Shown here piece after piece: positions 39,478 to 57,331 of a DNA stretch of 64,000 bases. Every line of letters begins with the position of its first letter. The stretch's first letter is position 1. Under the pieces are notes generated by a model. The model saw nothing but the letters and a program-made list of their open reading frames with translations, ran no database searches and was not told the origin of the DNA. Origin of the DNA: a virus (lineage: Duplodnaviria > Heunggongvirae > Uroviricota > Caudoviricetes); the IMG/VR virus record IMGVR_UViG_2029527006_000005. One strand, written 5' to 3'. The position numbers and the translations under genes are program-made.

Positions 39478-39544
39478 AGTATTACTCCTTCGTTTCGATA
39501 TAGATATAATAGCAAAAGGGCTGACATGTGTCAACCCTTTTTTA

Positions 39545-39992: not shown

Positions 39993-40208
39993 TCATTTAC
40001 GTAAACACCCCATGATAATGCCCTGTAATAACTGACGCTTAACCGGATGATTGGCTACTGTTGCTTTGATGCGATTAGCTTCACGTAGTATACCATCACA
40101 CTGTTCCTTTGTCAATTTATCGATGACTAGTTGCGTGTTAGTACTTTGTACTGTACCCTCTTGCATTTTGAATCGGATACCGTTTAAAATTAATGAATGA
40201 GTTGGCAT
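39993..40208 (-). CDS. hypothetical early protein
   Basis: GGAG RBS. Confidence 0.65.
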   Translation of the reverse strand: MPTHSLILNGIRFKMQEGTVQSTNTQLVIDKLTKEQCDGILREANRIKATVANHPVKRQLLQGIIMGCLRK

Positions 40209-40220
40209 GGTAATCTCCCT

Positions 40221-40421
40221 TTAGTTATCGCATGAGATTACCTCTTTGTTCGTGTACTTCACTTTGTAGTATCCATTTAGTGAACGCCATTCGTAGATGT
40301 ATGAGAGTATATTACCATCTAGGTCATCGTCTGTCAAGCCTGTAATTTCGGCGTGATGGGTTTCGTAATTGTCCTCATTGGGTTTAAGTCCCTTCAAGGT
40401 TACTCGTACTGTTATTGACAC
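40221..40421 (-). CDS. hypothetical early protein
   Basis: GTG start with AGGAG RBS. Confidence 0.6.
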   Translation of the reverse strand: MSITVRVTLKGLKPNEDNYETHHAEITGLTDDDLDGNILSYIYEWRSLNGYYKVKYTNKEVISCDN

Positions 40422-40675
40422 GTGTACTCCTTTGTGATACCATCGAATTGCATAATGATATTGTTTCCGTGCAGGATATATGTTACAGTACCGAATCGAT
40501 CTTTAGCCACGAATAAACCGGGCTTGACTTCTTCGGCAACAACATGTTCGTTTGTGTCCACCAGCGAAGTGTTATCAATGATAAATCGAGTACTGAAACC
40601 ATCAGCACTACAGATCAAGTCCTGTGCTAATACTGGAGTACTGAAGAGTGCAGCGAGTAAGAGTAAATGTTTCAT
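40412..40675 (-). CDS. small secreted/periplasmic protein
   Basis: signal peptide MKHLLLLAALFSTPVLA; two Cys near the ends of the mature chain. Confidence 0.7.
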   Translation of the reverse strand: MKHLLLLAALFSTPVLAQDLICSADGFSTRFIIDNTSLVDTNEHVVAEEVKPGLFVAKDRFGTVTYILHGNNIIMQFDGITKEYTCQ

Positions 40676-40741
40676 CGTTTGGTCCTCTTTGGTTGTACTG
40701 ATATAATAACAAAAAAGGCTGACATATGTCAACCTCTTTTT

Positions 40742-41260
40742 TTAATCTTCGTAAGTGAATGGTGTGATTGCATCGCTAATGTATTCAACAATAGCTAATG
40801 GATCGTCTTCACGTGCTGTAATCTCTGCTGTAGCTCTGTATGCGGCCTGTAGAGCGTTTTTAACTTTAGCCGGGGCTACCTCTTTAAGTTCTGCAATTAA
40901 TCGCTTAGAATGGCGTACATCGCCTTTAAACGCTGCTTTCCAATCATCTTGTAAAGTACTGATAAGAGTTTTAGAATCTTTTGGCATTGGTTTCTGTACT
41001 TCTGGTTCTGGTGTTGGCTTACCACCCATTAAGCCTAGGGATTGGAAGTATCTTAGTTTCTCGTCTGGTTTCATTCGAGAGGTATCGACTAGTGTATCGG
41101 TTACTGTGTTTGCTTTACCTGCTGCCCCTGTTCCTTGATTACGGGAGCCACGCGATCCCTGTCCTGCGTTATGGCTATTACTGCGGCGGTTCTCATCGCT
41201 CCACTTGTCCGAGTGTCCAGCGAGAGTAGCACCTGATTTAGAGCGGAATTGACCCGGCAT
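40742..41260 (-). CDS. hypothetical protein with low-complexity N-terminus
   Basis: AGGAG RBS before MPGQF. Confidence 0.7.
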   Translation of the reverse strand: MPGQFRSKSGATLAGHSDKWSDENRRSNSHNAGQGSRGSRNQGTGAAGKANTVTDTLVDTSRMKPDEKLRYFQSLGLMGGKPTPEPEVQKPMPKDSKTLISTLQDDWKAAFKGDVRHSKRLIAELKEVAPAKVKNALQAAYRATAEITAREDDPLAIVEYISDAITPFTYED

Positions 41261-41576
41261 AATTAATTCTCCTGTGCATGAATTATAGATATATTTATGC
41301 ACCCTGTGGGTTAGCTTGTTTCTATGCGTATATAATAACAAAAGGGCTGACTCTCGTCAACCCATTTTTTACATGTATTTTAAATATAATCTGTCAAATG
41401 ATTCTAATGCTACAACAGCGTTTGATGTTACAATTCTTTCCCTTCCACATCTTACGGTGAAGTTCTGTCCGTCAAAAGTCATGATTACATCATTGATGTT
41501 TCGAATACGTTTCATTTGGTTCTTTCCAATATGTGCTACCCTATGGAAAGTATTATACCAAATGATCCAATAGTGA

Positions 41577-41828
41577 TCAACGCTGATTTACAAAATCATT
41601 GTACTTTTCGTGAGACATTAAATGTAGTTGCTTTTCTTTGTCAATTACGATACGCTCAGTTCGGGAAATATCCAGTACTTGGAATAGTCCGTTACTCAGT
41701 TTGCGAGCGTGGAGATCACCACTTATGAAACTGTTAGCTGCTTTGACAGCCTTCTCTACAATCTTCTTTTGCGGCTTGTAGTGCAGTTTCATGAAATTAC
41801 CGTTGACTAATTCGACTTGCTTTTTCAT
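41577..41828 (-). CDS. small protein, possible ParE/RelE-like fold
   Basis: 83 aa; ARKL...LDI...RIV...LMSHEKYN pattern; recalled similarity, unverified. Confidence 0.45.
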   Translation of the reverse strand: MKKQVELVNGNFMKLHYKPQKKIVEKAVKAANSFISGDLHARKLSNGLFQVLDISRTERIVIDKEKQLHLMSHEKYNDFVNQR

Positions 41829-41871
41829 TTTGGTTTCTCTTAAAGGTGGGGGATTTCTCCCCCTGTGTTGG

Positions 41872-42243
41872 TTAGCTACGGGCGAGACTAGCAGCCAGTA
41901 GTGCGGCGGTGCGTGAGCGGCGAACAAGTACATTCACGTTATTACCCTTGCGATCTTTCAGGGTGTAGCTGTGATTGTGCACTTGACGTGAGTCCACCAG
42001 CGGCAAACCCATAATATCACGCGGTTCTACTGGCTCAAGTGCTACGTCCATCACTTCAGCCTGAAGCATTGCAGCAAGCTGTGCGACGGCCTCAGACTTA
42101 GGAGCTTCTACCGTGTATTGTACTTCCCAACGCTTACCAGCAGGAGCATCAGCACCGTTATCAATGATCTTGCCGTCATAATCTACTTTAGCGTGTCGTG
42201 CATCGTTACGGGTTTTGCAGAACACAGATTTGATAGTAGCCAT
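41872..42243 (-). CDS. hypothetical early protein
   Basis: GAGG RBS, own promoter. Confidence 0.7.
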   Translation of the reverse strand: MATIKSVFCKTRNDARHAKVDYDGKIIDNGADAPAGKRWEVQYTVEAPKSEAVAQLAAMLQAEVMDVALEPVEPRDIMGLPLVDSRQVHNHSYTLKDRKGNNVNVLVRRSRTAALLAASLARS

Positions 42244-42451
42244 TTTTGTACTTCCTCTTTGTGGTTGATGTAAGTATTATACTTTAATGTCGATTCGGTG
42301 TCTAGTACTTTTTACTTCTTTTTGATGCTCTTTTACTTCTTTGACAATCCTTTCTTGTTGGGGAATACTGTAAGTATTATACACTGTCCGGTAGATTGGT
42401 GCAACTGGTGTAATCATCTTTAAGTACTCCCCTTGTGTTTAAAGTATTATA

Positions 42452-42769
42452 TCACAGTGAAGCGAGGGAACCAAGGAAAATCTCTGCTTCTTCCATCGTT
42501 ACAACCCTTGCGTTCTGTCCGTTCAAAAAGATAGTAGCAATGTCTTTTTCTGCTCTGTGGCGGGTGATGTAACGTTTTATATCATTACGCCCTGATGCTG
42601 GTAAGTGGTTACCTTCCAAGTAGTAACCGCTGTAAATGCAATCTTTGCCTGTCCACGGATTCTTTACCATAATGGCAAAGTTACGATCAGAGCTACCCAG
42701 AGTACTATACATAGTATGACCAACTGGAGAGGTGTCGATTGTTTTTCGCATTGCTGAATGTAAAGCCAT
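42452..42769 (-). CDS. hypothetical early protein
   Basis: GAGG RBS, own promoter. Confidence 0.7.
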   Translation of the reverse strand: MALHSAMRKTIDTSPVGHTMYSTLGSSDRNFAIMVKNPWTGKDCIYSGYYLEGNHLPASGRNDIKRYITRHRAEKDIATIFLNGQNARVVTMEEAEIFLGSLASL

Positions 42770-42870
42770 TTTTTAAATCCTCGTTTGTTTAAAGGTTCTT
42801 TCTCGTCTTGATGTAAGTATTATACAGTACTGTAAGAGGGAGTCAACAACTATTTTCAAAATAAAAGTAC

Positions 42871-42999
42871 TTGACACCGCGATCTGTTTTTGGTATTATA
42901 TATCCCATAGAGACAACTAACCCACAGGGTGGGATAATCTATCCAAATTTTATAGTACTGTACAAATAAACAGGGGAGTGGTTAGCTCCCCATTGTGTT
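42871..42999 (+). ncRNA. candidate ~90 nt small RNA unit
   Basis: TTGACA-17-TATTAT, ACCCACAGGGTG, AGTACTGTACAAATAAAC, GGGGAG/CTCCCC hairpin; no ORF. Confidence 0.55.
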
Positions 43000-43642
43000 A
43001 CATTTTGCGGATTGCTTTCACGGTATCTTTTACAGATTTACCCGCTAACAAAAGTTCTTCAATCTTCGCGTACTGCTCAGTTGTCAGGTCTTCGCCCGTC
43101 TGTGCCAGTACTGCTTCGTATTGAGATTCTTTCATTTTCATTTCCTCGGTTGTTTGCTGTTGATGTAAGTATTATAAAGTACTCGCTCAGTAAATGCAAG
43201 TACTTTTAATCATTACGCCTCTCTTACACTACGATATGATCCTTTAATATCTTGCAGCTTTTTGACACGTTGCCACGCATCACCAGCCGAATAACCCCAT
43301 TCACGCACGAGGGTTACACCACCAGATTTAAGAATCACTTCAAATACAAATTCTTTTTTCATAGTATCTTGATCCCCTCATAACCACCAGCGATGGCAGA
43401 ATGGAAATCAATCTTTGTTTCGTGTGAGATCCATTTAGCCTTTAATACAGTACCTACCGGATAGAAACTAGTAGCCCAATCCATTACTTCGGCGTGTTGT
43501 TCTTCTCGCTCTTTACGCTCAGTACTAACCAGCATTTTAGTAGTGAAGTTCGAAGTACTTACATCCAGAGAGTAGATAGACTATTTTTTTAATTCCTTGT
43601 TTGCTTAAGATGGGACTATTATATAATAGCCCCTGTGTACTG

Positions 43643-44182
43643 TCAAGCCTTATCTTTTAGATAATCAGGTAAATCTGTATTCTGATAATCTAACTCTTTA
43701 AGTACTTGCTTATCCTTAGTACTGTTTGAGATAATATCAAAATCGTAGATTCTGATAAGTTTCCCGCCGTAGTTCCCTGCATCGCTGTTATGCGTTACAC
43801 CTTGAGCAGTAAAGAAAGCGGCTAACTCTTTAGCAATCTTATGTAAGCCTTTAACATTCCAGTACAGCCACAATTCAAAGCGATGTGCGGTCATTGTTTC
43901 GCGTTGGCTAAACTCTTTCTTAAACAGTTTCGCCAGCTTTTGAGTACAATACACATTACACCAGTATTGCAGGTTCGGGATTGTTATCTCTACGTTGCTT
44001 GCGTGTTGTTCCTCTTTGAGTTCCACTGTCAAGGCGTACACTGATCGCCCGTAATGCTCGGCCCACAGATAAGAGTTCGTACAGTAGAGACCAACACCAT
44101 ACTGCGTACTATGGATTTTTGCACCCAGATAACCCGGACGATGATCAAACTTGCTGGAGCCGTGATAAAGGGTAGTAATCAT
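43643..44182 (-). CDS. putative ADP-ribosyltransferase-like (H-Y-Y type) protein
   Basis: LYHGS...YGVGLYCT...AEHYG motif series; start at MITTL. Confidence 0.6.
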   Translation of the reverse strand: MITTLYHGSSKFDHRPGYLGAKIHSTQYGVGLYCTNSYLWAEHYGRSVYALTVELKEEQHASNVEITIPNLQYWCNVYCTQKLAKLFKKEFSQRETMTAHRFELWLYWNVKGLHKIAKELAAFFTAQGVTHNSDAGNYGGKLIRIYDFDIISNSTKDKQVLKELDYQNTDLPDYLKDKA

Positions 44183-44238
44183 TTTGTGTATCTCGTTTCG
44201 TTTCAATGAATACATTATGCCAGTACTTGCAAAGTATG

Positions 44239-44727
44239 TCAACTGCTTTTGGAATATTTCTTTTTCCATGTAAAGGCGGTTGCATATGATACATTTAATT
44301 CATTAGCTAGCCTTTGTATACCATAACCATTATAATAGGTTGTCTGAATGTAGTCTATGATTTCCGGTGTTAATTTACTACTGAAATTATTCATTCCCCA
44401 TTGTTCACGCAATAAACCATTATCAGCCGCATGTTTTGTATTTTCTTGAACCGTCGCCCATTCAAGATTAGAATAATGATTATTTTGTTTATTTCCATCT
44501 TTATGATTGACAACGGTTTGATTTGGTGCTGCTGGTGGGAGAAAATTCAATGCTACCAAACGGTGTGCTTTGCAATTCTTTCCTTGACCTTCAAACCAAA
44601 GTTGTAGTATACTATAACCATCTTTATCGGTTGCTTGCTTACGTATGCGTCCTGTCTTGCGTGTTCGCACGTCGCCAAACTCTGACACCTCATAATTGCT
44701 ATTCTCTTTAAGTACTTTCCATTCCAT
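44239..44727 (-). CDS. NUMOD4-HNH homing endonuclease
   Basis: EWK...YEVSEFGDVR (NUMOD4), AHRLVA, VNHKDGNKQNNHYSNLEW. Confidence 0.9.
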   Translation of the reverse strand: MEWKVLKENSNYEVSEFGDVRTRKTGRIRKQATDKDGYSILQLWFEGQGKNCKAHRLVALNFLPPAAPNQTVVNHKDGNKQNNHYSNLEWATVQENTKHAADNGLLREQWGMNNFSSKLTPEIIDYIQTTYYNGYGIQRLANELNVSYATAFTWKKKYSKSS

Positions 44728-44801
44728 AAAATATCCTTTTGTCAATCCCTTATTAAGAATATTATATCACAAAAATAATCGATTGTCCCAAAAATAAATG
44801 C

Positions 44802-44928
44802 TTGACAGCCCACCAGCATTTTGGTATTCTATATCCCATAGAAACAATTAGCCCACAGGGTGCGGAAATGTATCTATAGGTTATAGTACTGTACAAATAA
44901 ACAGGGGAGTCATTGCTCCCCTTTGTGT
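44802..44928 (+). ncRNA. candidate ~90 nt small RNA unit
   Basis: TTGACA...TATTCT promoter, GCCCACAGGGTGC, same 3' module and hairpin as the 42871 unit. Confidence 0.55.
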
Positions 44929-45257
44929 TATTCTTCTGCGTCTAAATCCAGATCCCCGTAGGCACTTTCCAGTAGTTCCCCTGTGTGATCATCAGCAAGG
45001 AAATTGTCTTCATAGTTAACGTCAACGCCGACAATGTAGAACTGGCGATCATCGGGATCATTAAAGTTAATTGATTGGATGTTAGCCATTACTGTATTGA
45101 TACCCAATACGCCGCCGTCATCAGTAACAAAGTACTGATATTTTTCATAGCCGCCAGAGTTGAAACCGTAGTTAATATTTGCTACGCCGTCATCCAGTCG
45201 AATCGCCTGAGAGATAAATTCATTTTCGAAGTTGGCTTGAACGTTGGAGATAGTCAT
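44928..45257 (-). CDS. hypothetical early protein
   Basis: GGY...TDDGGVL...VNYED...ESAYG; cassette RBS. Confidence 0.75.
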   Translation of the reverse strand: MTISNVQANFENEFISQAIRLDDGVANINYGFNSGGYEKYQYFVTDDGGVLGINTVMANIQSINFNDPDDRQFYIVGVDVNYEDNFLADDHTGELLESAYGDLDLDAEE

Positions 45258-45348
45258 TGTACTTTCCTTAATTAGTGGGGGAAGATGTTTTCCCCCTATG
45301 CAAATCATTATACGCTTATCAGGGAGTAATGCAAGTACTTTTTAGTAC

Positions 45349-45684
45349 TTAATTACGCCGGGATTCTGCCAGGAAATCATTCTGCCACTCGCAGAGTTCT
45401 TCCATGTTTTCTTTGTCGTGTAAATCACTTGCCGCTTGCAATATGATCAATTTAATCATATCATTGATTGTCAGGTCGTCAGTGTTTACGTCATAACCTT
45501 TGAGTACTTCACGCATATCATCTAACTGATATGATCCAACCTGTCCGAGTAACTGACACAACGCTTTACTGCTAGCTTCTGCCTTTTCGCGGGTAGTTGC
45601 TAACTCATACACCATATCGTATGATGGGAACACCAGCACCAGCTTATTACAATCTGACTGCCATTCTAAATCAGGTTCACGCAT
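45349..45684 (-). CDS. hypothetical early protein
   Basis: cassette RBS before MREPD. Confidence 0.7.
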   Translation of the reverse strand: MREPDLEWQSDCNKLVLVFPSYDMVYELATTREKAEASSKALCQLLGQVGSYQLDDMREVLKGYDVNTDDLTINDMIKLIILQAASDLHDKENMEELCEWQNDFLAESRRN

Positions 45685-45763
45685 GACCTTTTCCTTAATT
45701 AGTGGGGGAAGTTGTTTCCCCCTATGCAAATCATTATACGCTTATCAGGGAGTAATGCAAGTA

Positions 45764-45994
45764 CTATTTGAATGAATTTACGATATAATTTACAGCGTCA
45801 TCATTCAGTTCTGCCATAGCATTTTTGATCACTTCACGCAGTTTTTCATCTGCGGCTAACTGGCTGCTGTTGCTGCCGTTCAACGCTTCACGCCATGTAT
45901 CTTCATGTGCCTGTGAAATGTTGCGTACCTGTGAGAGTCGAGAAGACAGTAAGATACGAGTCAGTACTTGAGCGATGATTTCACGTTGTTCCAT
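45764..45994 (-). CDS. hypothetical early protein
   Basis: GAGG RBS. Confidence 0.7.
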   Translation of the reverse strand: MEQREIIAQVLTRILLSSRLSQVRNISQAHEDTWREALNGSNSSQLAADEKLREVIKNAMAELNDDAVNYIVNSFK

Positions 45995-46057
45995 TTGGTA
46001 GTTCCTCTTTGCTTAAGATGGGACTATTATATAATAGTCCCGTTTAGTTGTCCAGTA

Positions 46058-46525
46058 CTATTTCACATTAATTTCCAGATATTCAGGCTTAATGCGATCT
46101 TGATTGTAAAGCTCATTTGCTTCTGCTAATGTCTGCACTTGGACACCAGCCGCTTTAAAATAGCGTGTAAGCGTTTCTAAGAGCTTTTCCGGTGTATTGG
46201 TAGTTTTACGTGTCTTAATCTTGTCATGACCCATAGCATAGTACTGCTTGCGTGGAATCGTGCTAATCGCTGAGTAGTACGGTTCCATTTCCAGCTTATC
46301 AGTGATATTATCATCACTGCCAAACTTCATGCCGTGGATTGCAAAAGTCATACGCATAGTGTCATTTTCGCGAATATTTGAACTGCAATCTTTTTGATCA
46401 CGAGTCATACCAAACGCCAGACAAACATCGCCACCCAATGGCAGACGTCCAACGTGTACCCAACCGTTAGGGAATACTGCGAGGAAAGCGGCTGATACTT
46501 TTGCGGTGAACTCTTTGCTATTCAT
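46058..46525 (-). CDS. hypothetical early protein
   Basis: 155 aa behind a cassette. Confidence 0.75.
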   Translation of the reverse strand: MNSKEFTAKVSAAFLAVFPNGWVHVGRLPLGGDVCLAFGMTRDQKDCSSNIRENDTMRMTFAIHGMKFGSDDNITDKLEMEPYYSAISTIPRKQYYAMGHDKIKTRKTTNTPEKLLETLTRYFKAAGVQVQTLAEANELYNQDRIKPEYLEINVK

Positions 46526-47159
46526 AATCTCTTTCTCTTAATTAGTGGGGGAAGATGTTTCCCCCATGCAAAACATTATACAGTACTGAAAAAGTAATGC
46601 AAGTACTTTTTAGATATTAAAGGAGTCAGCATAACGTTGCAATGACTGCCAACTAATGTTATAATGCTTTGCTGCTCGCATGATTGATTCGGTTTCTGTG
46701 CACTGCGTTTTCTGCTCAATATGGAAAGCATAATCAAGAGCACCTTCGTAATCGCTTGAATCAAATTCTTTCTCATCCATTGCTTTGTCCTCTTTGTTAA
46801 GTTAGAAGTATTATAACACAGTAAACACATAAAGCAAGAACTATTTCAGTACTATAATATAACAGACAGACCATCGCACCCTGTGGGTTAGTAGCTTATC
46901 TGCCAATGACTATATAATACCGCATTGGCAGTTTGGTGTCAATCCTTTTTATCATCTTTTTTATCAGATAAGAAATCAGGTAATTTAGTACTTGGATTAT
47001 CCCAATCAATTTCGTTATAATGATTAGTGCCGTTAATTTCATCCAGTACTCGAATTGTTTCTTTTACCGTTTCGATTGTAACCTTTGCCATGTTGCCCCC
47101 TGTTTGCTGTACTGATATAATAACAAAAGGGCTGACATTAGTCAACCCCTTTTAAAACT

Positions 47160-47585
47160 TTATTGATTTGACAAACGGGCATCCAGTGCAATGCGTACCT
47201 CGTTTAATGAGTCGATGATGCTTCCAGTAGTTTGTCCTAACTGGTTATACATCCAGTCCTCAGAAGTAACAAGACGATCCATTTCTGAAAGTACTTTCTC
47301 AGCCGCTTTCAGTTTGTCATGCCATTCATTCATTTGATTGTACTGGCGTACTGTGTAAGAATCACCAGCCAGATCTACAGGTACTTTAAACACCAGAATC
47401 TGACGGGCTTGCTTATCCATATCTTTGAACAGATCGGATGACTCTCTGAAAGTACTGTCAACAATAGTACCAGTAAGTTTATCGTAATCGATAAACACTT
47501 GCGTTTCACCGATCAGCCCTTCCGCACGAATGGTAGGGGAGTTAGCGTCGTTCGCGAAACCGGTCATGTTAACTTTGTTGCTCAT
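47160..47585 (-). CDS. hypothetical early protein
   Basis: 141 aa behind a cassette. Confidence 0.75.
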   Translation of the reverse strand: MSNKVNMTGFANDANSPTIRAEGLIGETQVFIDYDKLTGTIVDSTFRESSDLFKDMDKQARQILVFKVPVDLAGDSYTVRQYNQMNEWHDKLKAAEKVLSEMDRLVTSEDWMYNQLGQTTGSIIDSLNEVRIALDARLSNQ

Positions 47586-47668
47586 GGGACTTTCCTTAAT
47601 TAGTGGGGGAGGTTATCTCCCCCTATGCAAAACATTATACGCTATTCAGAGAGTAATGCAAGTACTTT

Positions 47669-47974
47669 TTACAAGAAAGATACCAGCGAGGATTTAACAA
47701 TAACCTCCGCTGTTACTTCGTCGTCTACTTCGGTCACGCACTTAAGAGTAACGCACCAATCGCCACCAGCAAAGTACCACGTATGGGGCTGATCACCTTC
47801 CTGATATGAGTTCTTATCTTTCAGGTCGGAACCGTCAAACGTTGGCATACCTTCCTCAAAGGCGTACAATTCAGCCTCTGCCAGATCCTTAGCCAGAATC
47901 AAACGCTTAAGGTTGGTTTCATATTCACCAATACGCTGCGTGATGTGAGCTACGAACAGTTTGGATTTTAACAT
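47669..47974 (-). CDS. hypothetical early protein
   Basis: 101 aa, own promoter. Confidence 0.7.
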   Translation of the reverse strand: MLKSKLFVAHITQRIGEYETNLKRLILAKDLAEAELYAFEEGMPTFDGSDLKDKNSYQEGDQPHTWYFAGGDWCVTLKCVTEVDDEVTAEVIVKSSLVSFL

Positions 47975-48046
47975 TTTGTTTCTCTTTGCTTAAGTGATGT
48001 AAGTATTATAAAGTACTCGCAAAGTATATGCAAGTACTTTTATTAC

Positions 48047-48283
48047 TTACTCCACGTTATCCCCGATCATGTTTGCAGAAAAACGAATGATCTCATATAC
48101 TGCACGTAATGATTGACCACCGATACAAGTATCGACCAGATCCCCCGCTGAGTTGTACTTTTCCAGTGTATAACCACCAGCAACAGGTTGCACTTTATAA
48201 CGATACTTTGCACCCATCGCAGACAGCTTGTTATTCAGTACTGACAGGTAATGATCAACTTCGGTACGGGTTACTTTAGCCAT
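48047..48283 (-). CDS. hypothetical early protein
   Basis: 78 aa behind a cassette. Confidence 0.7.
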   Translation of the reverse strand: MAKVTRTEVDHYLSVLNNKLSAMGAKYRYKVQPVAGGYTLEKYNSAGDLVDTCIGGQSLRAVYEIIRFSANMIGDNVE

Positions 48284-48374
48284 GATTCTATTCTCTTAAT
48301 TAGGAGGGGAACCATTTCCCCTCTCTATGTAAAACATTATACGCTCTTTGGAATACTTTGCAAGTACTTTTTAC

Positions 48375-48737
48375 TTAATGTTTAACTTCGTTATATACTT
48401 TAACACTACGGGCATCAATTACTAACTGACTATAATTTGAAACTATATTTTTAAAGAATGGAACGTTTTTATACATGATTTGCACACGTTCCTGTGTCAA
48501 GCGACGAATTAATAAAATCAATTCATATTTCTTTTGGGTATAATATGCCTGTAATACAGTGTCAAGATACGCCGATTGTTCTGGAGTACTTTGTCCAAGT
48601 TCAACACAACGCTTGACAACAGTCTCGATTGAGTCTAGTATCTCACTTCTTACCATACGGTTATCACCAATTAAGATATGGTGTACTGCCCACATTTCAA
48701 CATCTGTGTGTTTGGTTGTATATGCTGGCTGGTGCAT
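48375..48737 (-). CDS. hypothetical early protein
   Basis: 120 aa, own promoter. Confidence 0.65.
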   Translation of the reverse strand: MHQPAYTTKHTDVEMWAVHHILIGDNRMVRSEILDSIETVVKRCVELGQSTPEQSAYLDTVLQAYYTQKKYELILLIRRLTQERVQIMYKNVPFFKNIVSNYSQLVIDARSVKVYNEVKH

Positions 48738-48817
48738 GATAGTATCTCTCTTCGCTTAATTGATGTAAGTATTATAAAGTACTCTCACACTATTTGCAAG
48801 AGTACTTTTGATAATAA

Positions 48818-49192
48818 TTAATTCAAGTAACGAATGAATCCTTGCGAGTCCAGAGCAGAGAAACCATTCTCTACAAAGATATTGCCGCGTATACCTTTGG
48901 CTACTGCGTTATAACTGGCAGACTTGAACACGTTCCCCTCAAAGTCTACACTACCGCAGGAGCTACGCCCGTATTGCATGATCTGCCCCGTTTCGTTACT
49001 CAGTTCGACGCGATCAATCTTCCAGTACTTCGGAGACTTGCGAACTTCAAAGGCGATTGCATACGGCATCTTATCAGGGCTAAACTGTACATCTTTGCGA
49101 CGGATCATTTCTTCCAACATCGCCACCAGTTCAACAGGTACAGTCTCAGCACTTGCACCACGTCCGAACAATACACGCTTAAAAGTAACCAT
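48818..49192 (-). CDS. hypothetical early protein
   Basis: KYWKI...GNVFKSASYNAVAKGIRGNI; GAGG RBS. Confidence 0.7.
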   Translation of the reverse strand: MVTFKRVLFGRGASAETVPVELVAMLEEMIRRKDVQFSPDKMPYAIAFEVRKSPKYWKIDRVELSNETGQIMQYGRSSCGSVDFEGNVFKSASYNAVAKGIRGNIFVENGFSALDSQGFIRYLN

Positions 49193-49546
49193 CTTTATAT
49201 CCTCTGTTTGGTTGATGTAAGTATTATATTAGAGTACTAAAACGAATGCAAGTACTTTTGATAATAAAATCCCAGCTATTACAATAAGCAGTACCGCACC
49301 CATTGCACCGAAACCGATCCACATTGCCGCCAATAAAGAACCAACAGGATTTTGTCGAATTTCATTAATCATTTTGTGTTACCCTTCGTTTGGTTGATAT
49401 AGGTATTATACTCTATTCCCAAAGTACTGCAAGCATTATTTTCAAATTATTTTCATTAAAAAAGTACTTGACAATATCGCAGTACTTTGGCATAATACAG
49501 TCATTGAAACAAATAGCCCACAGGGTGGGGGAATCCGTCTGTTGAT

Positions 49547-49565
49547 GTAAATGATTATCATTCTC
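49547..49565. promoter_or_regulatory. Fur-box-like site
   Basis: reverse complement GAGAATGATAATCATTTAC matches GATAATGATAATCATTATC at 16/19. Confidence 0.7.
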
Positions 49566-49647
49566 AAGTACTGAATACTTCTCCGCACCCTATGGGTCAC
49601 GCCTTTGTTCTGGCTTAAAAGTATTATCTCATTAAGCCAGTACTTTG

Positions 49648-50050
49648 TCAACGTTTTATTTCTTCGTAAGGATTTGGGCGTAACGTTGGCGGCATCTCTA
49701 AATGTGAGAAGTTAAACGAGTTCCCACGGTTCGCACGTCCGATCATTTGGATCTGATTAGGGTAGAATCCTGTTAGCCAATCATCTACCCAGATGATCCC
49801 CACGCCTTCATTGATGCGTTCTACCAGTACTTTACGCTTTTGTTTACGCTTCTTTATTCTCCGCTGATGGGCGTTCGTTATCCCATTGTGGTGCGGTGTA
49901 GTGTAACGATTTTTCACAACCTTCTCCCAACACTTTTTCAACCCGTTCTCTTTCGAATTGATTTGCCTCAGTTCTGGATAATAGTTTATCATACTTTGGA
50001 GGCGTGTCAACTACTTTTTCAATCTCATTCAGTACTTGACATTGATTCAT
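49648..50050 (-). pseudogene. possibly frameshifted early gene (two overlapping frames)
   Basis: ORF 49844..50050 has the RBS; ORF 49648..50010 continues in another frame. Confidence 0.35.
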
Positions 50051-50095
50051 TTTAAAGCTCCTGTAAGCCCCTATGCGGGGCTTTAACTTAAAGGG

Positions 50096-50338
50096 TTAGC
50101 AGTACAAGGATTCTTTATTCCAAGCCCCTGCAATGGGTTTTAGAGCGGTAGGATCGAGTGCTATCACCTCTTTGCGGAAAACAATATAATTGATTTCCTT
50201 GTGATATACTACCCGCTCATACATTTTCCCGCCTACAATGAAACATACATACCCGCTCCAGTGTGGTTTATCACCTACTGTTACCATAGAGCGACGGGCG
50301 GTAGTGTTTGGGTCGATGAGTTGGTCAATAGTTCGCAT
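50096..50338 (-). CDS. hypothetical early protein
   Basis: GAGG RBS before MRTID. Confidence 0.65.
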   Translation of the reverse strand: MRTIDQLIDPNTTARRSMVTVGDKPHWSGYVCFIVGGKMYERVVYHKEINYIVFRKEVIALDPTALKPIAGAWNKESLYC

Positions 50339-50403
50339 TGCTTTTCCTCTTTGCTTAATGTAGGGATATGATACCATATCCCCGTAATGTGTCAAGTACT
50401 TTT

Positions 50404-50784
50404 TTATACTGCTACAGATGTAACAATACGGCAATCATCACCAAGTACTTCTACAATTTCTTTCAAAGTCAAGGTAAATTTTACCTTCCCGTTCGCTTTC
50501 AGTACTTGCACCTCATTAGGCCAGATGCCACCGCAACGGAAATAGTAGTCACGGCAAAACTTCAAAAGAGCTTGACAAAGAAACGCATCTTTGTTAAGTT
50601 CACGGCGATTAACTACGCGGGTAGTGATCCCCTCCGCTTTGTAGTCTGCCATTGTTTCTTTTGCGTCTTTGCTGCTAGTCGCTTCGCCAACGTCAGCCCA
50701 TCCATAAGTAGGCACGTATTCCTGTACCATCTTAACAGTACTGAATTTGTTAAAGGTCTGTGCTGGAGTGATTTGATTAGGCAT
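50404..50784 (-). CDS. hypothetical early protein
   Basis: 126 aa, own promoter. Confidence 0.7.
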   Translation of the reverse strand: MPNQITPAQTFNKFSTVKMVQEYVPTYGWADVGEATSSKDAKETMADYKAEGITTRVVNRRELNKDAFLCQALLKFCRDYYFRCGGIWPNEVQVLKANGKVKFTLTLKEIVEVLGDDCRIVTSVAV

Positions 50785-50868
50785 AGTAATATTCTCTTAA
50801 TAGTGTTTCGTTTCGATAAAGTCATTATGCCAGTACTCGATCAGTATGTCAAGTACTGGAGTAAAACT

Positions 50869-51072
50869 TTATACGCCGTAGATCAAATTACTTGCTTTCC
50901 ACTTCCCATCTACTTTACGATGAGTCTCGATAAACATGTTATTGATTGGTGAACGATACCCGATCAAGTCACAACCGTTTCGTGTTGCGGAGATCTTAGC
51001 ACCTTTCTCAGTCAGACCAGTTTCATTGAATACTGACATGTAAACAAAACCCCATACCTTTTGCATCTTCAT
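50869..51072 (-). CDS. hypothetical early protein
   Basis: cassette RBS before MKMQK. Confidence 0.7.
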   Translation of the reverse strand: MKMQKVWGFVYMSVFNETGLTEKGAKISATRNGCDLIGYRSPINNMFIETHRKVDGKWKASNLIYGV

Positions 51073-51175
51073 TTCCTTAATTAATGGGGGAAGATGTTTC
51101 CCCCTATGCAAAACATTATACAGTACTGCAAAAGTAATGCAAGTACGTTCTTCAAATAATATTCAGAAAAAGATG

Positions 51176-51304
51176 TTGACAAGCTGGTGGAGTACTGGCA
51201 TAATACACGCATAGACAAAAACTAACCCACAGGGTGCAGCAGTCCGTCTGTATGATTTAGTACTGTACAAATAAACAGGGGAAGCAATTGCCTCCCCTTC
51301 GTGT
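51176..51304 (+). ncRNA. candidate ~90 nt small RNA unit
   Basis: TTGACA-17-CATAAT, AACCCACAGGGTGCAGCAGTCCGTCT, AGTACTGTAC, GGGGA...TCCCC hairpin. Confidence 0.55.
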
Positions 51305-51537
51305 TATTCTTTCAGAAGTTCAAAGTCGCCGTGGGTCAAATCTTCTGGTTCCCAATCGATCACGTTCCCGATCACGTTCCCGCTTTGAATGTCAACCACT
51401 TCACGGGAGGACTCAAAAATTTCGTATTGCCCAGTAGTTAAACCTTCTAGTACTTGTTGTTCTGTCAGTGATGAATCCACCAGCTTGATTGACACGGAAA
51501 CCATTTCTTTACGCACGAAACCAATTGAGATTGCCAT
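51304..51537 (-). CDS. hypothetical early protein
   Basis: cassette RBS before MAISI. Confidence 0.7.
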   Translation of the reverse strand: MAISIGFVRKEMVSVSIKLVDSSLTEQQVLEGLTTGQYEIFESSREVVDIQSGNVIGNVIDWEPEDLTHGDFELLKE

Positions 51538-51619
51538 GATTCTTTTCCTTAATAGTGGGAGAGAACTATTTCCCTCCCTATGCAAAACATTATACAGTAC
51601 TGAATGAGTAATGCAAGTA

Positions 51620-51880
51620 TTATCTCATAGATCTATGCCAACAATTTCTAGGATCTCTTTTGAAAGTACTATCATGATCCGCTTGACATTCTACGCAGTA
51701 CTTGCAACCCTTAACAGCTTCACGCCTACGCTCAGGAATAGCCCTAGAACAGTCTAGGCAGTGCGTTCTACTTTCGGTAGTACTATCCCCTAGCTGTTTC
51801 CTTGCGTGGCGTATGGCGGCGTTTAGAACGGCCTGAATCTCTTCTTGCTCTGCACCATCTTTTGCAAAACCTACTGCCAT
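51620..51880 (-). CDS. TraR/DksA-family C4 zinc-finger protein
   Basis: MAVGFAKDG-x-EQEEI N-terminus, CLDC-x3-IPERRREAVKGCKYCVECQ, ends SMR (YbiI-like). Confidence 0.88.
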   Translation of the reverse strand: MAVGFAKDGAEQEEIQAVLNAAIRHARKQLGDSTTESRTHCLDCSRAIPERRREAVKGCKYCVECQADHDSTFKRDPRNCWHRSMR

Positions 51881-51936
51881 AAATCCCCCAATAAAAAAGG
51901 CTACCAAGTGGTAGCCTTTTGTGTTAAGCTGTTAAG

Positions 51937-52560
51937 TTATTCAGCGAAAGCGGCTGCTGCTGCTTCTTTATCCACTGCGTGAGCAAGGATAAAATCTTTA
52001 TGGGTAGTGTACCCGCCAGCGGTCATAGCGTCTTTGAGTACCTGCACCATGTTACCAGAAGTTGGCATGTTGTACTGTTTGCCGTCAACCGTTACAGGGA
52101 TGCGGGTAAAGGTGTATTTTGGCTCTTTGTTAACATCGCCGTACTTCTTAGCGATTGCCGCCGTTGCTGCCGCTTCTGCCGCTTCGAGGTCAAGACCCAT
52201 GCCGTTTACAGTGTCCATGAGGAACTTGAGCATGTTTTCTTTTTCTACTTTGATTTCTTCGTCACGTTTGGCGATTTCAGCGAGGCGATCCGCTTTCTTC
52301 GCTTCACGGCGTTGTGCTGCTTCTTCTGCCGCCTGTGCCGCCGCTTTTGCGTTCTCTTTGAGTACTTCTTTCGCGTCTTTAACTGCGAGGGAGAAAGTCA
52401 TACCCAATTTAGATACGCCGTCTTTGTCGCCGCCAATCTTCGCGAGGATAATCGCGAGTGCTTTGTGATCACCAGCTTCGAGAGCGGATTTAAGGGTTAC
52501 ACGTGATGCTGCTTCTGCGTTGTTGGTAGCGGTGTTTGCGTTAGTGTTGATAGTAGTCAT
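51937..52560 (-). CDS. putative H-NS/MvaT-like nucleoid-associated protein
   Basis: Ala/Glu/Lys coiled coil, NGMGLDLE linker, C-terminal PKY...SGN...VLKDAM...GY...DFIL resembling the H-NS DNA-binding domain. Confidence 0.5.
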   Translation of the reverse strand: MTTINTNANTATNNAEAASRVTLKSALEAGDHKALAIILAKIGGDKDGVSKLGMTFSLAVKDAKEVLKENAKAAAQAAEEAAQRREAKKADRLAEIAKRDEEIKVEKENMLKFLMDTVNGMGLDLEAAEAAATAAIAKKYGDVNKEPKYTFTRIPVTVDGKQYNMPTSGNMVQVLKDAMTAGGYTTHKDFILAHAVDKEAAAAAFAE

Positions 52561-52958
52561 TTGTATTTCCTCTTAAAGTTTAGTTAGGTTGTTTGCTGTC
52601 TACGTGGTCATTATCTCAATTTCCCACCAGCTTGTCAAGTACTTTTTAAAACTCTTTTCAATCTTTCTTTCCGAGTCAGCACCAGATATTCATACGACTT
52701 ACTGGCTGTCTACTTAGGGAAGTTAATCTGTCCCGCCGCTCTATGTGATACAGTATGCCTGTTTCCGTTCCATCCGTCAAGTACTTTTTAAGAGATTGAC
52801 AATCTTTTTTTCATTTTCCTTATATTTCAGTACTAAAGCATAACGCCACCAGCAAGCCTATAACGCGTTTAAAGTACTGCCCTAATATGTTTGCTTGCAT
52901 TATTCGTTGAACGGCTTATAGAGCGATACAGAGCGTTTAAATTCATTTGAAAAAGATG

Positions 52959-53090
52959 TTGACAGTACTGATCAAATCCTGTATTATGTATCTCATGAAA
53001 ACAAGCTAACCCATAGGGTGCAGCAGTCCGTCTATAGGATTTAGTACTGTACAAAATAACAGGGGAAGCAATTGCCTCCCCTTGTGTTAT
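52959..53090 (+). ncRNA. candidate ~90 nt small RNA unit
   Basis: TTGACA-17-TATTAT, AACCCATAGGGTGCAGCAGTCCGTCT; close copy of the 51176 unit. Confidence 0.55.
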
Positions 53091-53092
53091 CA

Positions 53093-53539
53093 TTACGCCC
53101 AGATATCACCGCCGATCTTCTGGCAAATGCTAGTACTGACATAGTTGCAATTCATAAGCTCATTGGTTGTGAACAATCCACTGTAGGAGTCTGCCCCGAT
53201 CTTGATACGCTTTTCAACGTGAATACGGGAACAGAAAAATACTTGCTTACTGGTAGTAACCCAAATGCTAGTGCCTAATTCAAAGTGCTGTTGTTCTTCT
53301 GGTAGTTGGCGAGTCTCTATCTCGATATGATACCAGTCTTGCAACGGACGGCCTTTGTAAAAATTGAAGTGATCAATGACCGTTTCCAGATTCGTTTCAG
53401 TATCTACTACCGACACGATCACGGCCTCTTTCTCTTCCATTTGCAGTACTGCCATTGCTTCATGTACAGTGTTTGCGGTTACGTTAGCATCGGTTACGTT
53501 GCCGTCTGGAGTCTTGAAAGTCAGGTAGTAGATAGTCAT
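53093..53539 (-). CDS. hypothetical early protein
   Basis: 148 aa behind a cassette. Confidence 0.7.
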   Translation of the reverse strand: MTIYYLTFKTPDGNVTDANVTANTVHEAMAVLQMEEKEAVIVSVVDTETNLETVIDHFNFYKGRPLQDWYHIEIETRQLPEEQQHFELGTSIWVTTSKQVFFCSRIHVEKRIKIGADSYSGLFTTNELMNCNYVSTSICQKIGGDIWA

Positions 53540-53622
53540 TTTCGTTTCTCTTAATAGTGGGGGAAGATGTTCCCCCTATGCAAATCATTATACGCTTATC
53601 AGGGAGTAATGCAAGTACTTTC

Positions 53623-54240
53623 TTATGCAATTCCCAAAACTTCGCCCGCCTGATTTACTTTAAAATCGTATTCATTAGCTTCGATAGTAGACCAAAGTGC
53701 TTCATCACTTGATTGATAATCATTCTCATCATCAAGCTCTTTATAAACTTTGCTTGACAAGTCGCGAATTGTATCAGTCAAAAACTCTTCCAGTACTTCA
53801 CTCGCTAAAACTTGTTTGTGTGTAAAGTCGATATTATAATCAAGCTCTACGCTACCGCTTACAGTGTTTTCGTGACTGTAGCGGGAAGATCCACGGTTTA
53901 CTTTCGCGTGAATCTCTTCATCGGCAATGATACGATGCAAGCGACGGAATTTAGACCACGCTTTAACCTTGCGTAAAAACTTCTCAAGATTGATATAGTA
54001 GTCAGTACTGATAGATGCACCGTCGCCCTGTGAGCAAAAACCAGACCATTCGATCTCTGCATTATAAATGCCGTATTCAGTGTCTAAATCCGCTTTCCAC
54101 TGATCAGTAATATCTACAGACCAATAAGGGGTAGAGTCCTGATTCTCTAACGCTCGCATAATCTCAATTGCCTGTGCTTTCTGTGCTTCATTCAGTGCGT
54201 CATAAGATACTGCTTTGATAACGTCGATGATGTTTTCCAT
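53623..54240 (-). CDS. conserved hypothetical protein (SGFxSQGDGA motif)
   Basis: WSGFCSQGDGAS, RYSHEN, DYQSSDEA..IEANEYDF; function unknown. Confidence 0.7.
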   Translation of the reverse strand: MENIIDVIKAVSYDALNEAQKAQAIEIMRALENQDSTPYWSVDITDQWKADLDTEYGIYNAEIEWSGFCSQGDGASISTDYYINLEKFLRKVKAWSKFRRLHRIIADEEIHAKVNRGSSRYSHENTVSGSVELDYNIDFTHKQVLASEVLEEFLTDTIRDLSSKVYKELDDENDYQSSDEALWSTIEANEYDFKVNQAGEVLGIA

Positions 54241-54324
54241 AATGCTTTCCTTAATGAGTTGTTTCGTTTGTATGTAAGTATTATAAAGTACTCGCAGAAT
54301 AAAGCAAGTACTTTTAATACTAAC

Positions 54325-54567
54325 TTACAAAGTACCGTTAGCGATCATTTCGTCGGCATTCATAAAGGCCGTTACTTTGTATTCTGAAATATCCACACAA
54401 GGGCAAACAAAACGCTCAAGGTATACAATAGTGCAGTACTGATAACCCTCACGCTCAAAGAAGCGACTAAGCAGATCGTGCAAGTGGTTGGCGTTATCTT
54501 CTGATACTACAACCGCATAAACAATCGCCTTACCTACTGTTGGAGTCATTTTAACAATGCGTAACAT
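54325..54567 (-). CDS. hypothetical early protein
   Basis: AAGGA RBS, own promoter. Confidence 0.65.
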   Translation of the reverse strand: MLRIVKMTPTVGKAIVYAVVVSEDNANHLHDLLSRFFEREGYQYCTIVYLERFVCPCVDISEYKVTAFMNADEMIANGTL

Positions 54568-54809
54568 GTTATTTCCTTAATGTGTTTGTGTGTCTCGTTT
54601 CGATGTAGCTATTATGCAATAGGTAGAAATAGAATGCAAGTACTTTCTCAATTCTTTTTTTATCCTTCCTTATATACATATAGTACTAAATTATTTTCGA
54701 TTTTCTTTTAAAAAGATGTTGACTCCAGCACAGGAAACCCGTATAATGTTTTACATGGAGGCGAAACTCCCGAACCCACAGGGTGCGGAAATGTATCATA
54801 TGAGCGAAA

Positions 54810-54824
54810 TGATAATCATTCGCA
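54810..54824. promoter_or_regulatory. Fur-box-like site
   Basis: TGATAAT-C-ATTCGCA versus 7-1-7 consensus TGATAATnATTATCA. Confidence 0.65.
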
Positions 54825-55060
54825 TTTAAAAAATTAAGGACAGACCCCCGCACCCTGTGGGCTTGAGCATTGTTCTTGCTATGTGTATATAATATCAAAG
54901 TACTGGCAACGTGTCAACAACTTTTTTGCAAAAATAAATGCTTGACATTCCCCCCAGATATTGAGACAATAGCCGTGAACAAAAAAAGCTGATTTGCGAT
55001 ACTGCCGGGAATTATATCTCGACGCGGTAGGCTAGCCAATGGAAAAAACAGGCCAGTACT

Positions 55061-55180
55061 GCAAACGATAATCATTATCATTCTCATCAGCAAATGAGAA
55101 TCAATATCATTCGCAAATGCAAATGAGAACTATTCGCACCTGAGAACCATTCTCAAAAGGAGAACGCTTATCATTCGCAC
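55061..55180. promoter_or_regulatory. tandem array of about five Fur-box-like sites
   Basis: GATAATCATTATCATTCTC (17/19 on reverse strand), TGAGAATCAATATCA, TGAGAACTATTCGCA, TGAGAACCATTCTCA, GGAGAACGCTTATCA. Confidence 0.7.
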
Positions 55181-56176
55181 AAACGCAACTAGCACAACTA
55201 CGCCCAAAATCCGTCCAGAGTACAGGACAAGTACACCCAAAATCCATCCAACATTTCTCACCCTAAAAAGTAACCAGTACTACAATAGTCTTCTCATTCT
55301 TGTGGAGTAACTGTTGCAGTACTGGAAAGCGAATATAGTTCATTTCTTACAGTGGGGATTCTCCCTTCTTATTATTCTTACCTTTACTGTCCTCTATACA
55401 CTAGAGGCTCATTTGAATTCACTTAATATCAGTACTGAATACGTGCACAGTAAGCAGTACTGTTTAGCCTTTTATCTTACAAGAGGTCAGGAGTGTCCGA
55501 CTTCACCATCGCCCTATGACAACTATTATGCCTAAAACCCACCAGCATGTCAACAACTATTTTTCAGTACTGATACTGTTAATTCATCCAGTACTGGTAT
55601 TATGTACATACACGTACACGCAGGGTGGATTCCCAGCTATGACATGTTACCATAGTTCCGCTAACGTGTCAAGTACTTTTGGAGGATCGGCTAACGCGTT
55701 GGTGAGTACTCGAACATTGGGCTGAAGGTTGGTAGGTACTCCAAAATTTCTAGGATCGAGATTTAGGATGGAGTACTTTCCAGATTTTAGCTGAAGGGTG
55801 GATGGTACTTTCCCTGAAAGGTGAAAGGGCTTTTACAAAACAAGGTACAAGTACTTTTCAGTACTTTATACTTCTCTTTAAAGAGAAGATATAGCGGAAG
55901 GGGTCAGTACTGAAGGGTGTGACGCGTGAGTGCTATACTGTAGCTCTCTATGATAGTTGCATCTGTAACTAATCCCCTGAGCTTTTTAAAAATAAAAATA
56001 CTGTACACCTTAACAGTTGGGTATTTTTACAGGTGTTGAATCCTTTCGATAAGCTCCTGTGAGTCGCAATCTACAGGAGCGACACCTGTACTATGTAGTA
56101 CTGAAGTCTTGTCTACGGGCTTCCTATGCGTTCTGGTGTGGTATGGTATAGGATGTTCTTTGTGGTGTCTATAGGG

Positions 56177-56191
56177 TAAATATGTTATAAT
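56177..56191 (+). promoter_or_regulatory. composite TAAATA + extended -10 promoter
   Basis: TAAATATGTTATAAT; the motif recurs at 57370 and 61861. Confidence 0.65.
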
Positions 56192-56212
56192 GATAATTAT
56201 ATAGGGGGATAT

Positions 56213-57331
56213 ATGATACCTTTTGCGAGGATAGTTACTTACGGGAATGTAGTACAAAGAGTTCAGATAGTTAAGGTTATCTGTTCATATTCCAACGTAT
56301 ACGTTTTGTACGGTGATGGTGAGTTATATGGATGTGGGGCTAATAACACGTTACAATTAAACGTAGCTGGTACACAAACACGTAAGGATTGGGTATTAGT
56401 TGCTAGTGGTGTACAAGATGCTTGGTGTGGTGCATATAGTGTAGTATATTATAATGGTAGTACCTACCGTATGCATGGTAGTATTTTGCCACTTGGAAGT
56501 ACTTCAGGATCTACGACAATAGCGTTGGGTGGTATAGATGTAACTAGTACGTTCCCTGCATATAATGTTGTACGGGATATAACGGTGGGTCAAGAGACTA
56601 TGCACTACCTTCACTCTAATGGATATGTCATATATGGTCGTGGAAACAATGCTACTTTATATACATTAGGAGGTGGTATTACTAGTGCACAGAATACATT
56701 TACTAGTGTAATGACGCTTGGTGGTGCTACTATAGTTGATATGTATGAAACACAAGATGATACTGTATTTTTAACTAGTACAGGAGATGTACGGGCATGT
56801 GGTAAGAGTACTTATGGTGCGATTGGATTACCTGCTGGGGGTTATGCGACGATGTTAGTAAGGACGAGTTCTGCTTCATTGATTGGTGGTAACTCTATGA
56901 GTACTATAGTTTATAAAGGTGGTGGTATTATAGATTATGCGGGTTGGCAGTACAATGGTCAATTGGGTAATGGATTAGCTACTAACGTACAGGTAACTTC
57001 TTTTACGAGGAATAGTACTGGTGTTGACACTGATATTCATAAAATAGGGAAGTCACAAACTGGATCATATATTAATATGTTTGCTACTACTGGTGGTGAT
57101 ATATATACAACGGGTATATTTGGTCGAAATGGGACGAATTCGGCATTAAGTTCATGGACGAAGACATTAACGGTTCCGAATTACGATCCTGAAAAGTCTG
57201 CGTTATATATGTGTTCTAACTTCACGTTAGTATACGATGGTGTTAGTAAGATTTATGTTACTGGTAGTCCTGTGTATTTGCCGGGAAGTATATCATCGGT
57301 GCAGTGGGATGAGCTTCAAATGCCGAGATAA
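56213..57331 (+). CDS. RCC1/BLIP-II-like beta-propeller protein, MIPFAR family
   Basis: N-terminal MIPFARIVTYGN; GELYGCGAN, GDVRACG and NGQLGNG repeats. Confidence 0.75.
   Translation: MIPFARIVTYGNVVQRVQIVKVICSYSNVYVLYGDGELYGCGANNTLQLNVAGTQTRKDWVLVASGVQDAWCGAYSVVYYNGSTYRMHGSILPLGSTSGSTTIALGGIDVTSTFPAYNVVRDITVGQETMHYLHSNGYVIYGRGNNATLYTLGGGITSAQNTFTSVMTLGGATIVDMYETQDDTVFLTSTGDVRACGKSTYGAIGLPAGGYATMLVRTSSASLIGGNSMSTIVYKGGGIIDYAGWQYNGQLGNGLATNVQVTSFTRNSTGVDTDIHKIGKSQTGSYINMFATTGGDIYTTGIFGRNGTNSALSSWTKTLTVPNYDPEKSALYMCSNFTLVYDGVSKIYVTGSPVYLPGSISSVQWDELQMPR

Follow-up and report, generated by a model that had tools for sequence, protein, structure and literature searches.

Predicted Fur operators in a dense array near the inferred edge of the direct terminal repeat of a RaK2-like jumbo phage

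Phages are known to sense the state of their host through host regulators that act at the promoters of particular genes, as with the LexA boxes of temperate phages, the Fur-controlled stx1 promoter and the PhoB boxes of cyanophages. In these cases the phage reads host physiology via a host transcription factor, and the boxes sit at the promoters of identifiable genes. The usual form of Fur repression depends on boxes overlapping a -35 or -10 element; in addition, multicopy Fur boxes titrate Fur, which is the FURTA principle. The Fur operator clusters of E. coli itself (among them fepA-fes, fepB-entC, fhuA and ryhB) consist of a 19-bp palindromic motif in overlapping copies offset by 6 bp, with several sites per cluster, and they overlap the promoter of an iron-regulated gene. 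Chen et al. 2007 (PMC2189734) describe Fur sites as clustered, with neighbors offset by 3 or 6 bases. A phage region of a different kind is the injection stop signal (iss) of phage T5, annotated at 9140-10149 of NC_005859, which corresponds to Repeat Region 3 of the left terminal repeat and overruns the repeat boundary by 270 bp (Davison, 10.1101/866236). The same paper is the source of the estimate of ~9618 for the first-step shear point of T5 DNA; in treating the iss region it discusses DnaA boxes and does not mention Fur.

The array considered here lies in a window (the whole stretch of DNA that was analyzed, 64,000 nucleotides of IMG/VR record IMGVR_UViG_2029527006_000005) belonging to a lytic RaK2-like jumbo phage, whose closest relatives are the Salmonella phages 7t3, SE_PL, PHA46 and Munch and the Klebsiella phage fENko-Kae01 (Kae01 below), at ~73% identity over 54553-56233. 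The array shares with the E. coli Fur clusters the 19-bp motif, the overlaps with 6-bp offset and the grouping of many sites, but lies ~85 nt downstream of a promoter with no gene behind it, and it is denser than all nine host operator regions sampled, with six hits of at least 12 bits in 120 bp as against one or two. Unlike the LexA, stx1 and PhoB boxes of other phages it is an orphan, placed in a putative control region at the repeat edge of a lytic phage. As on FURTA plasmids, many copies of the boxes could titrate Fur; however, FURTA owes its effect to the artificially high copy number of a laboratory system, and the fixed slot of the array argues for action in cis, so that the array has more the look of a set place where a host regulator docks than of a sponge free to lie anywhere. 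The features of the region are collected in Table 1.

Table 1. Predicted features of the Fur-box array, its surroundings and the related cassettes (positions in the window)
Feature	Position	Strand	Remarks
Gene-free stretch	54568-56212		~1.6 kb, without conserved ORF
Inferred direct-terminal-repeat boundary	~55891		by homology; 18-bp palindrome at 55871-55892
Tandem Fur-box array	55061-55184	n/a	matrix hits and consensus matches
Overlapping 19-mer pairs	starts 55061/55067, 55090/55096, 55160/55166		6-bp offset in each pair
Single Fur box	start 55119		
Weak palindromic box	near 55136-55156		
Sigma70-type promoter (P+2)	54942-54970	+	10/12, extended -10; aims through the array to the repeat boundary
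Leader hairpin	55000-55029	+	between P+2 and array; consensus fold, seven lineages
Inward promoter-like site	55011-55039	-	10/12; convergent with P+2; array upstream of its -35
Two 27-nt repeat copies	55191-55250		right edge of slot; repeat family D7
Two inward promoter-like sites	55553-55525, 55672-55644	-	11/12 and 10/12; between array and boundary
LexA-box-like sites	55433-55452, 55574-55593; third core 56001		regex scan
Cassette with convergent promoters	54719-54917		promoters 54719-54747 (+) and 54917-54889 (-)
Second cassette of like build	49468-49650		convergent promoters, 14-bp inverted repeat; Fur box 49547-49565 (19.3 bits) in hairpin loop
LexA cassettes	42958, 44889, 51263, 53047		perfect CTGT-N8-ACAG ~50 nt past plus-strand promoter
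Fur-like box in minus-strand gene 53623-54240	53715-53733		14.2 bits

The gene-free stretch of ~1.6 kb reported in the preliminary description was recovered with its limits in the flanking genes, the minus-strand genes ending at 54567 and the plus-strand genes beginning at 56213, with a reversal of GC skew between them. Cumulative GC skew has its minimum near 55000-56000, and the G+C content around the array is ~38-41%. The accompanying statement that no gene lies downstream of the array holds for ~1 kb, up to the plus-strand gene at 56213 beyond the repeat boundary. A hidden gene 3' of the array was considered and rejected, since the open reading frames of the stretch match the relatives equally in every frame and with an amino-acid identity lower than that of the nucleotides. 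Position 1 of the Munch record and the terminal-repeat boundary of Kae01, which was defined by PhageTerm (PMC11218385), both align to ~55891; by this homology the array would lie ~706-830 bp inside the edge of a direct terminal repeat of ~20 kb, upstream of all the small early-type genes in the repeat. The gene-free region spans the boundary, with ~1.3 kb inside and ~0.3 kb outside, and the repeat edge forms the physical terminus at one repeat copy and the inner edge at the other. Adjoining the boundary, a block at about 55733-55892 is the sole gene-free part kept in 121Q-like phages (~76%); it stops close to the boundary palindrome and is a candidate terminase or terminus recognition site. 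Chi octamers are dense over 35869-55546 and show a strand bias of 15 to 3, in the orientation that RecBCD would recognize on coming from the far end of the repeat.

The boxes were scored with a symmetric weight matrix made from ten real E. coli Fur operators. The sites came from nine Fur-controlled intergenic regions of E. coli K-12 (fepA-fes, fepD-entS, fepB-entC, fhuA, cirA, fiu, tonB, exbB and ryhB), which form the calibration set, and within the 22 kb E. coli ent-fep region the known operators alone reach 12 bits. The array scores 19.7 bits at 55061, 19.3 at 55067, 16.6 at 55090, 16.0 at 55160, 14.4 at 55096 and 13.1 at 55119, and its top two boxes exceed all ten training operators (9.8-18.0 bits). 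Against the 19-bp Fur consensus there are 17 matching positions at 55067, 16 at 55061, 49547 and 53715, 15 at 55090 and 14 at 54805, 55096 and 55160, whereas the best site in each of the nine E. coli regions reaches just 12-16/19 with the same consensus. The Fur boxes first described as lying within 120 bp, the best of them at 17/19, are borne out by six hits of at least 12 bits in 55061-55184; so are the single boxes noted at 49547 and 54810, the latter being the 19-mer that starts at 54805. Outside the array these two boxes score 19.3 and 14.3 bits and the box at 53715 scores 14.2 bits.

Such a density is not expected by chance. The window holds 11 positions of at least 12 bits against 1.65 +/- 1.1 in 100 order-2 Markov simulations, and the six in its densest 120 bp compare with a maximum of 2 in the same simulations. 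A comparison of the Fur matrix scores with AT-matched shuffled sequence, as had been proposed, places the array far above background: dinucleotide-preserving shuffles of the array (n=1000) gave a mean of 0.01 hits and a maximum of 1, against the six observed. The array thus resembles Fur operators both in motif, at the level of real sites (13.1-19.7 bits, 14-17/19), and in spacing, with pairs 6 bp apart; it departs from them in that it overlaps no -35/-10 promoter, there being just weak 9/12 promoter-like matches inside it. The predicted Fur boxes match the motif at least as well as the host's own operators.

The plus-strand promoter said earlier to point through the array from 54942-54970 was found by promoter scan and is conserved in relatives; both of its hexamers are kept in Kae01 and 7t3, and promoter-like hexamers stand at its position in RaK2, Hallingskeid, vB_Ec-M-J, EJP2 and CBB. 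Its predicted transcript would start at ~54977, and the first Fur box starts 91 nt past its -10 element. The segment 54977-55200 has a fold z-score of -3.06, and the consensus fold of the leader hairpin across seven lineages has 13 predicted pairs, 5 of them with compensatory changes. The inward promoter-like site at 55039-55011, whose -35 lies ~22-145 bp downstream of the array, is kept in Kae01 and 7t3 and readable in EJP2 but is not evident in vB_Ec-M-J or Hallingskeid, though the slot is kept in both. The 27-nt repeat motif at the right edge of the slot trails Fur-type arrays and the Met-type arrays described below alike in the relatives.

A comparable organization is found on a smaller scale along the repeat. 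In the cassette at 54719-54917 the promoters flank a 14-bp perfect inverted repeat (54775-54788/54848-54861) with a Fur box, 54805-54823, in its loop, and both loop and box are unchanged in Kae01 and 7t3; the Fur box of the second cassette has an identical counterpart at the matching place in Kae01 and RaK2. In the four LexA cassettes the LexA core comes immediately before a GC-rich hairpin that has a T-rich tail. The order of promoter, structured leader and host-repressor box recurs in two Fur and four LexA cassettes here and also in rV5. The box at 53715-53733 lies within a gene; its homologous site in Kae01 scores 19.0 bits, and RaK2 ORF327 (annotated as similar to rV5 gp180), whose homology to the 53623-54240 gene is suggested by gene order, carries a 13.2-bit box. 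This box may be functional, or coding constraint may explain it.

A Fur-type array occupies the same slot in four more lineages, the Kae01 group, RaK2, KP13-7 and the Erwinia phage Hallingskeid, and the conservation of the boxes spans genera. The flanks of the slot have diverged to ~70% identity or less among the lineages; in Kae01, Munch and 7t3 the Fur boxes are kept at homologous places, the window having one additional 29-nt unit, and in RaK2, KP13-7 and Hallingskeid the arrays follow the same leader landmark despite flanks that are far more diverged. In whole-genome counts of Fur matches with at most 3 mismatches, made for Kae01/7t3, RaK2, CBB and vB_Ec-M-J, the matches of Kae01/7t3 and RaK2 cluster within the initial 7.3 kb of the repeat, and CBB and the 121Q-like vB_Ec-M-J have none in those 7.3 kb.

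In vB_Ec-M-J, EJP2 and CBB the slot instead holds an array in strict 8-bp register that is MetJ-box-like and not Fur-type. These Met-type arrays have 16-25 units, of which the majority unit is the MetJ box consensus or 1-2 bases off it. Their match to the tandem MetJ consensus is as good as that of the actual metJ-metB and metF operators (25/32 and 31/40, against 24/32 and 28/40 for metJ-metB and 18-20/32 for controls). Position 3 of the unit is A in about half and C in about half of the copies, however, while it is A in all ten real met boxes sampled, and the assignment of the 8-bp arrays as MetJ-type operators is consequently tentative. The Met-type arrays, which occur in 121Q-like, CBB-like and other RaK2-like phages, share with the Fur array the distance from the promoter, the flanking motifs and a position ~0.7-0.85 kb from the boundary, and differ in operator type, in the 8-bp period and in the number of units; whichever array type is present, the first box lies 88-99 nt past the -10 element in all seven lineages measured. 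Neither a Fur nor a MetJ homolog is encoded in five complete related genomes, so that a phage-encoded Fur or MetJ was rejected and host Fur is the likely ligand of the Fur array. A role of the array at the RNA level was likewise rejected, since in sister lineages the sequence is exchanged completely and the slot is retained.

Related arrays extend to two other phage groups. In rV5-like phages and in AAS21 and KEY, which are T5-like, the Fur-array query also finds matches in non-coding DNA; the Met-type query matches T5-like phages of Vibrio and Aeromonas, and an array in 8-bp register is present in a T5-like Vibrio phage. The 138-kb genome of rV5 has a single strong consensus match, a 20.4-bit Fur box that comes after a promoter and GC-rich palindromes, in that order. 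The T5-like AAS21 has six Fur hits in ~180 bp, with no upstream promoter detected, and in the T5-like Pontus the array is of Met type and has DnaA boxes after it; the alternation between Fur and Met types is thus also present in a second phage family. The T5 iss itself contains a Fur-box cluster at about 9549-9718 (17.2, 17.1, 13.7, 10.8 and 10.8 bits), five hits of at least 10 bits where shuffles give 0.045, and this cluster encloses the estimated shear point; nearby are DnaA boxes and, at about 9409-9428, a perfect LexA box. The T5 iss and the gene-free stretch of the window are both untranslated and repeat-dense, straddle a repeat boundary (in the window the inferred one), are conserved across a phage family and carry boxes for host DNA-binding proteins, Fur boxes in both and a perfect LexA box in T5 where the window has LexA-like sites. 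They differ in that the T5 array has no preceding promoter-leader unit and in that the iss has conserved pairs of DnaA boxes, whereas a search for the DnaA box (TTWTNCACA) found none in 54568-56212, the nearest being at 49910. Judged by this analogy, the known system to which the array region appears closest is the T5 stop-signal region, minus its DnaA boxes.

The fixed slot, the conserved promoter and leader, and the exchange of operator type with the surroundings kept point to a position-dependent role in cis. The reading tentatively favored here, to which we assign a probability of about 0.38, is that the array is a cis-acting, iron-dependent docking site or barrier for Fur at the edge of the direct terminal repeat. 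In an iron-replete cell, dimers of Fe2+-Fur would coat ~125 bp and make a protein barrier that stops or stalls host RNA polymerase traveling from the 54942 promoter toward the repeat boundary, and that also hinders polymerases from the two inward promoters nearer the boundary (55553 and 55672); the early-gene side would thereby be insulated from the terminal 0.7 kb. Loss of metal by Fur would lift the barrier and so tie traffic at the repeat edge to the physiological state of the host. A MetJ-type array would serve this purpose in the sister phages, as single LexA or Fur boxes would in the smaller promoter cassettes of the repeat; any host repressor with cooperative binding to tandem sites could take the role. 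The preliminary description had offered bound Fur as an iron-sensing roadblock, and the position of the array downstream of the 54942 promoter fits this geometry. Several points count against a barrier: the array boxes overlap no strong -35 or -10 element; a roadblock should need far fewer boxes than the 16-25 of the Met-type arrays; no upstream promoter is detectable for the comparable Fur array of AAS21; an outward transcript from the left-end repeat copy would simply stop where the DNA does; and the inward transcripts from 55553 and 55672 would be hindered too.

The main rival to the barrier is a checkpoint on DNA transfer of the T5 type, in which the array would belong to a jumbo-phage equivalent of the T5 stop signal: host proteins bound along the inner repeat edge would halt genome entry for a time or permit it, or would keep hold of DNA already inside, rather than control transcription. 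Its appeal comes from T5, where the iss combines a Fur cluster around the estimated first-step shear point with a perfect LexA box and DnaA boxes and where, as in the window, the untranslated region spans the repeat boundary; the recurrence of Fur/Met alternation in T5-like phages (AAS21 and Pontus) and the Chi orientation bias in the repeat, which fits entry from the far end, also agree with it. The checkpoint is nevertheless rather improbable in that two-step injection is not reported for RaK2-like myoviruses in the literature searched, the T5 stop point is a rough estimate, no mechanism is at hand by which soluble cytoplasmic repressors on entered DNA would halt further entry, and the tight link to promoter and leader in the jumbo phages is left unexplained. 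A sponge acting in trans, the headline of the preliminary description, would draw off Fur as genome replication multiplies the arrays, relieving repression of host iron uptake or of the manganese ribonucleotide reductase that Fur represses. It needs no set position, yet the slot, at 88-99 nt past the -10 element and behind a conserved leader hairpin, is fixed to within ~10 nt relative to a conserved promoter in seven lineages, and a swap from Fur to MetJ-type boxes would change the derepressed regulon while the surroundings of the slot are kept. There are, moreover, just ~six to seven distinct sites per repeat copy, and similar arrays occur in T5-like phages; the annotation of T5 A1 gives it a part in the breakdown of host DNA and the shut-off of host gene expression, so that derepression of host genes would be pointless there. 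Very high scores without promoter overlap, the two copies per genome that a place in the terminal repeat provides, and very long Met-type arrays in sister phages that look built for capacity all speak for a sponge, which on balance we consider quite unlikely, though some titration may arise as a side effect. What survives of the original Fur interpretation is therefore the quality of the boxes, the plausibility of host Fur and the roadblock; derepression of host iron uptake by a sponge is disfavored by the fixed slot, the MetJ-type swap and the T5-like arrays.

Two further explanations replace either the target or the ligand, and both are very unlikely. In one, Fur would exert conventional control over the 55039-55011 promoter, repressing it by spreading or activating it by displacing a silencer such as H-NS, as described for E. 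coli ftnA. The array has a suitable place for this upstream of the -35 of that promoter, and AT-rich phage DNA of the local composition would suit H-NS; against it, the promoter is not recognizable in vB_Ec-M-J or Hallingskeid, where the slot is conserved, and to our knowledge MetJ is not an anti-silencer. The upstream region of ftnA reaches at best 9.3 bits with the matrix and is consequently a poor sequence parallel; an ftnA-type upstream Fur array was rejected in that capacity and kept as a weak functional analogy. In the other, the boxes would be sites for a phage protein (origin iterons, small-terminase repeats or sites of an early repressor) that merely resemble Fur boxes. Repeat arrays near genome ends are typical of packaging and origin sites, the cumulative GC skew minimum lies close by, and most proteins of the RaK2-like group are without known function. 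This coincidence is hard to reconcile with a match to the host-operator matrix that surpasses those of the host sites themselves and is repeated across three phage families, or with the wholly different array in the slot of relatives that have homologous replication and packaging genes; in iterons or terminase repeats the type of repeat should be conserved among phages with homologous initiator and terminase, and here it is not. The block at 55733-55865 beside the boundary is a better candidate for a packaging site, and the five complete related genomes encode no Fur-family protein.

An orphan, super-dense operator array at a terminal-repeat edge is not described in the literature searched. 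No paper was found on Fur or MetJ arrays in these phages, nothing relevant emerged on Fur boxes in jumbo phages, on met boxes in phages, on titration of Fur by phages, on Fur at the T5 stop signal or on transcription-factor decoys of lytic phages, and the CBB and fENko-Kae01 papers do not mention Fur- or MetJ-type sites. The array is of added interest in being exchangeable between Fur and MetJ types and in being shared in kind with the unexplained injection stop signal of T5. A broader proposal, to which we give little credence at present, is that large lytic phages whose terminal repeats are long (RaK2-, rV5- and T5-like) build the control of the repeat edge from interchangeable arrays for host repressors, that such arrays are the core of the T5 iss, and that delivery or the early program would in this way be tied to the health of the host; it is comparably doubtful that in these arrays Fur would report iron and MetJ S-adenosylmethionine, with LexA and DnaA boxes nearby. 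If Fur binds, fur mutants, iron chelation and box mutations would offer a direct and cheap handle on a 50-year-old question in T5, and there would be a handle as well on the early program of jumbo phages of Klebsiella, Salmonella and E. coli that are candidates for therapy. Iron limitation is the normal condition in the host animal, where such phage therapy would act.

Two minor observations concern the wider neighborhood of the array. Between a pair of minus-strand genes, at 54267-54331, a 20-bp inverted repeat with 85% complementarity may form an intergenic hairpin. It gave the single match in an Rfam scan of 54200-56300, a sub-threshold chance match to a microRNA family, which indicates that no known RNA family is present in that interval. 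The palindromic hexamer AGTACT occurs 257 times in the window against ~21 expected from composition; it is found throughout, often in promoter spacers or just before the -35 or -10 element, and is densest at 54000-56000.
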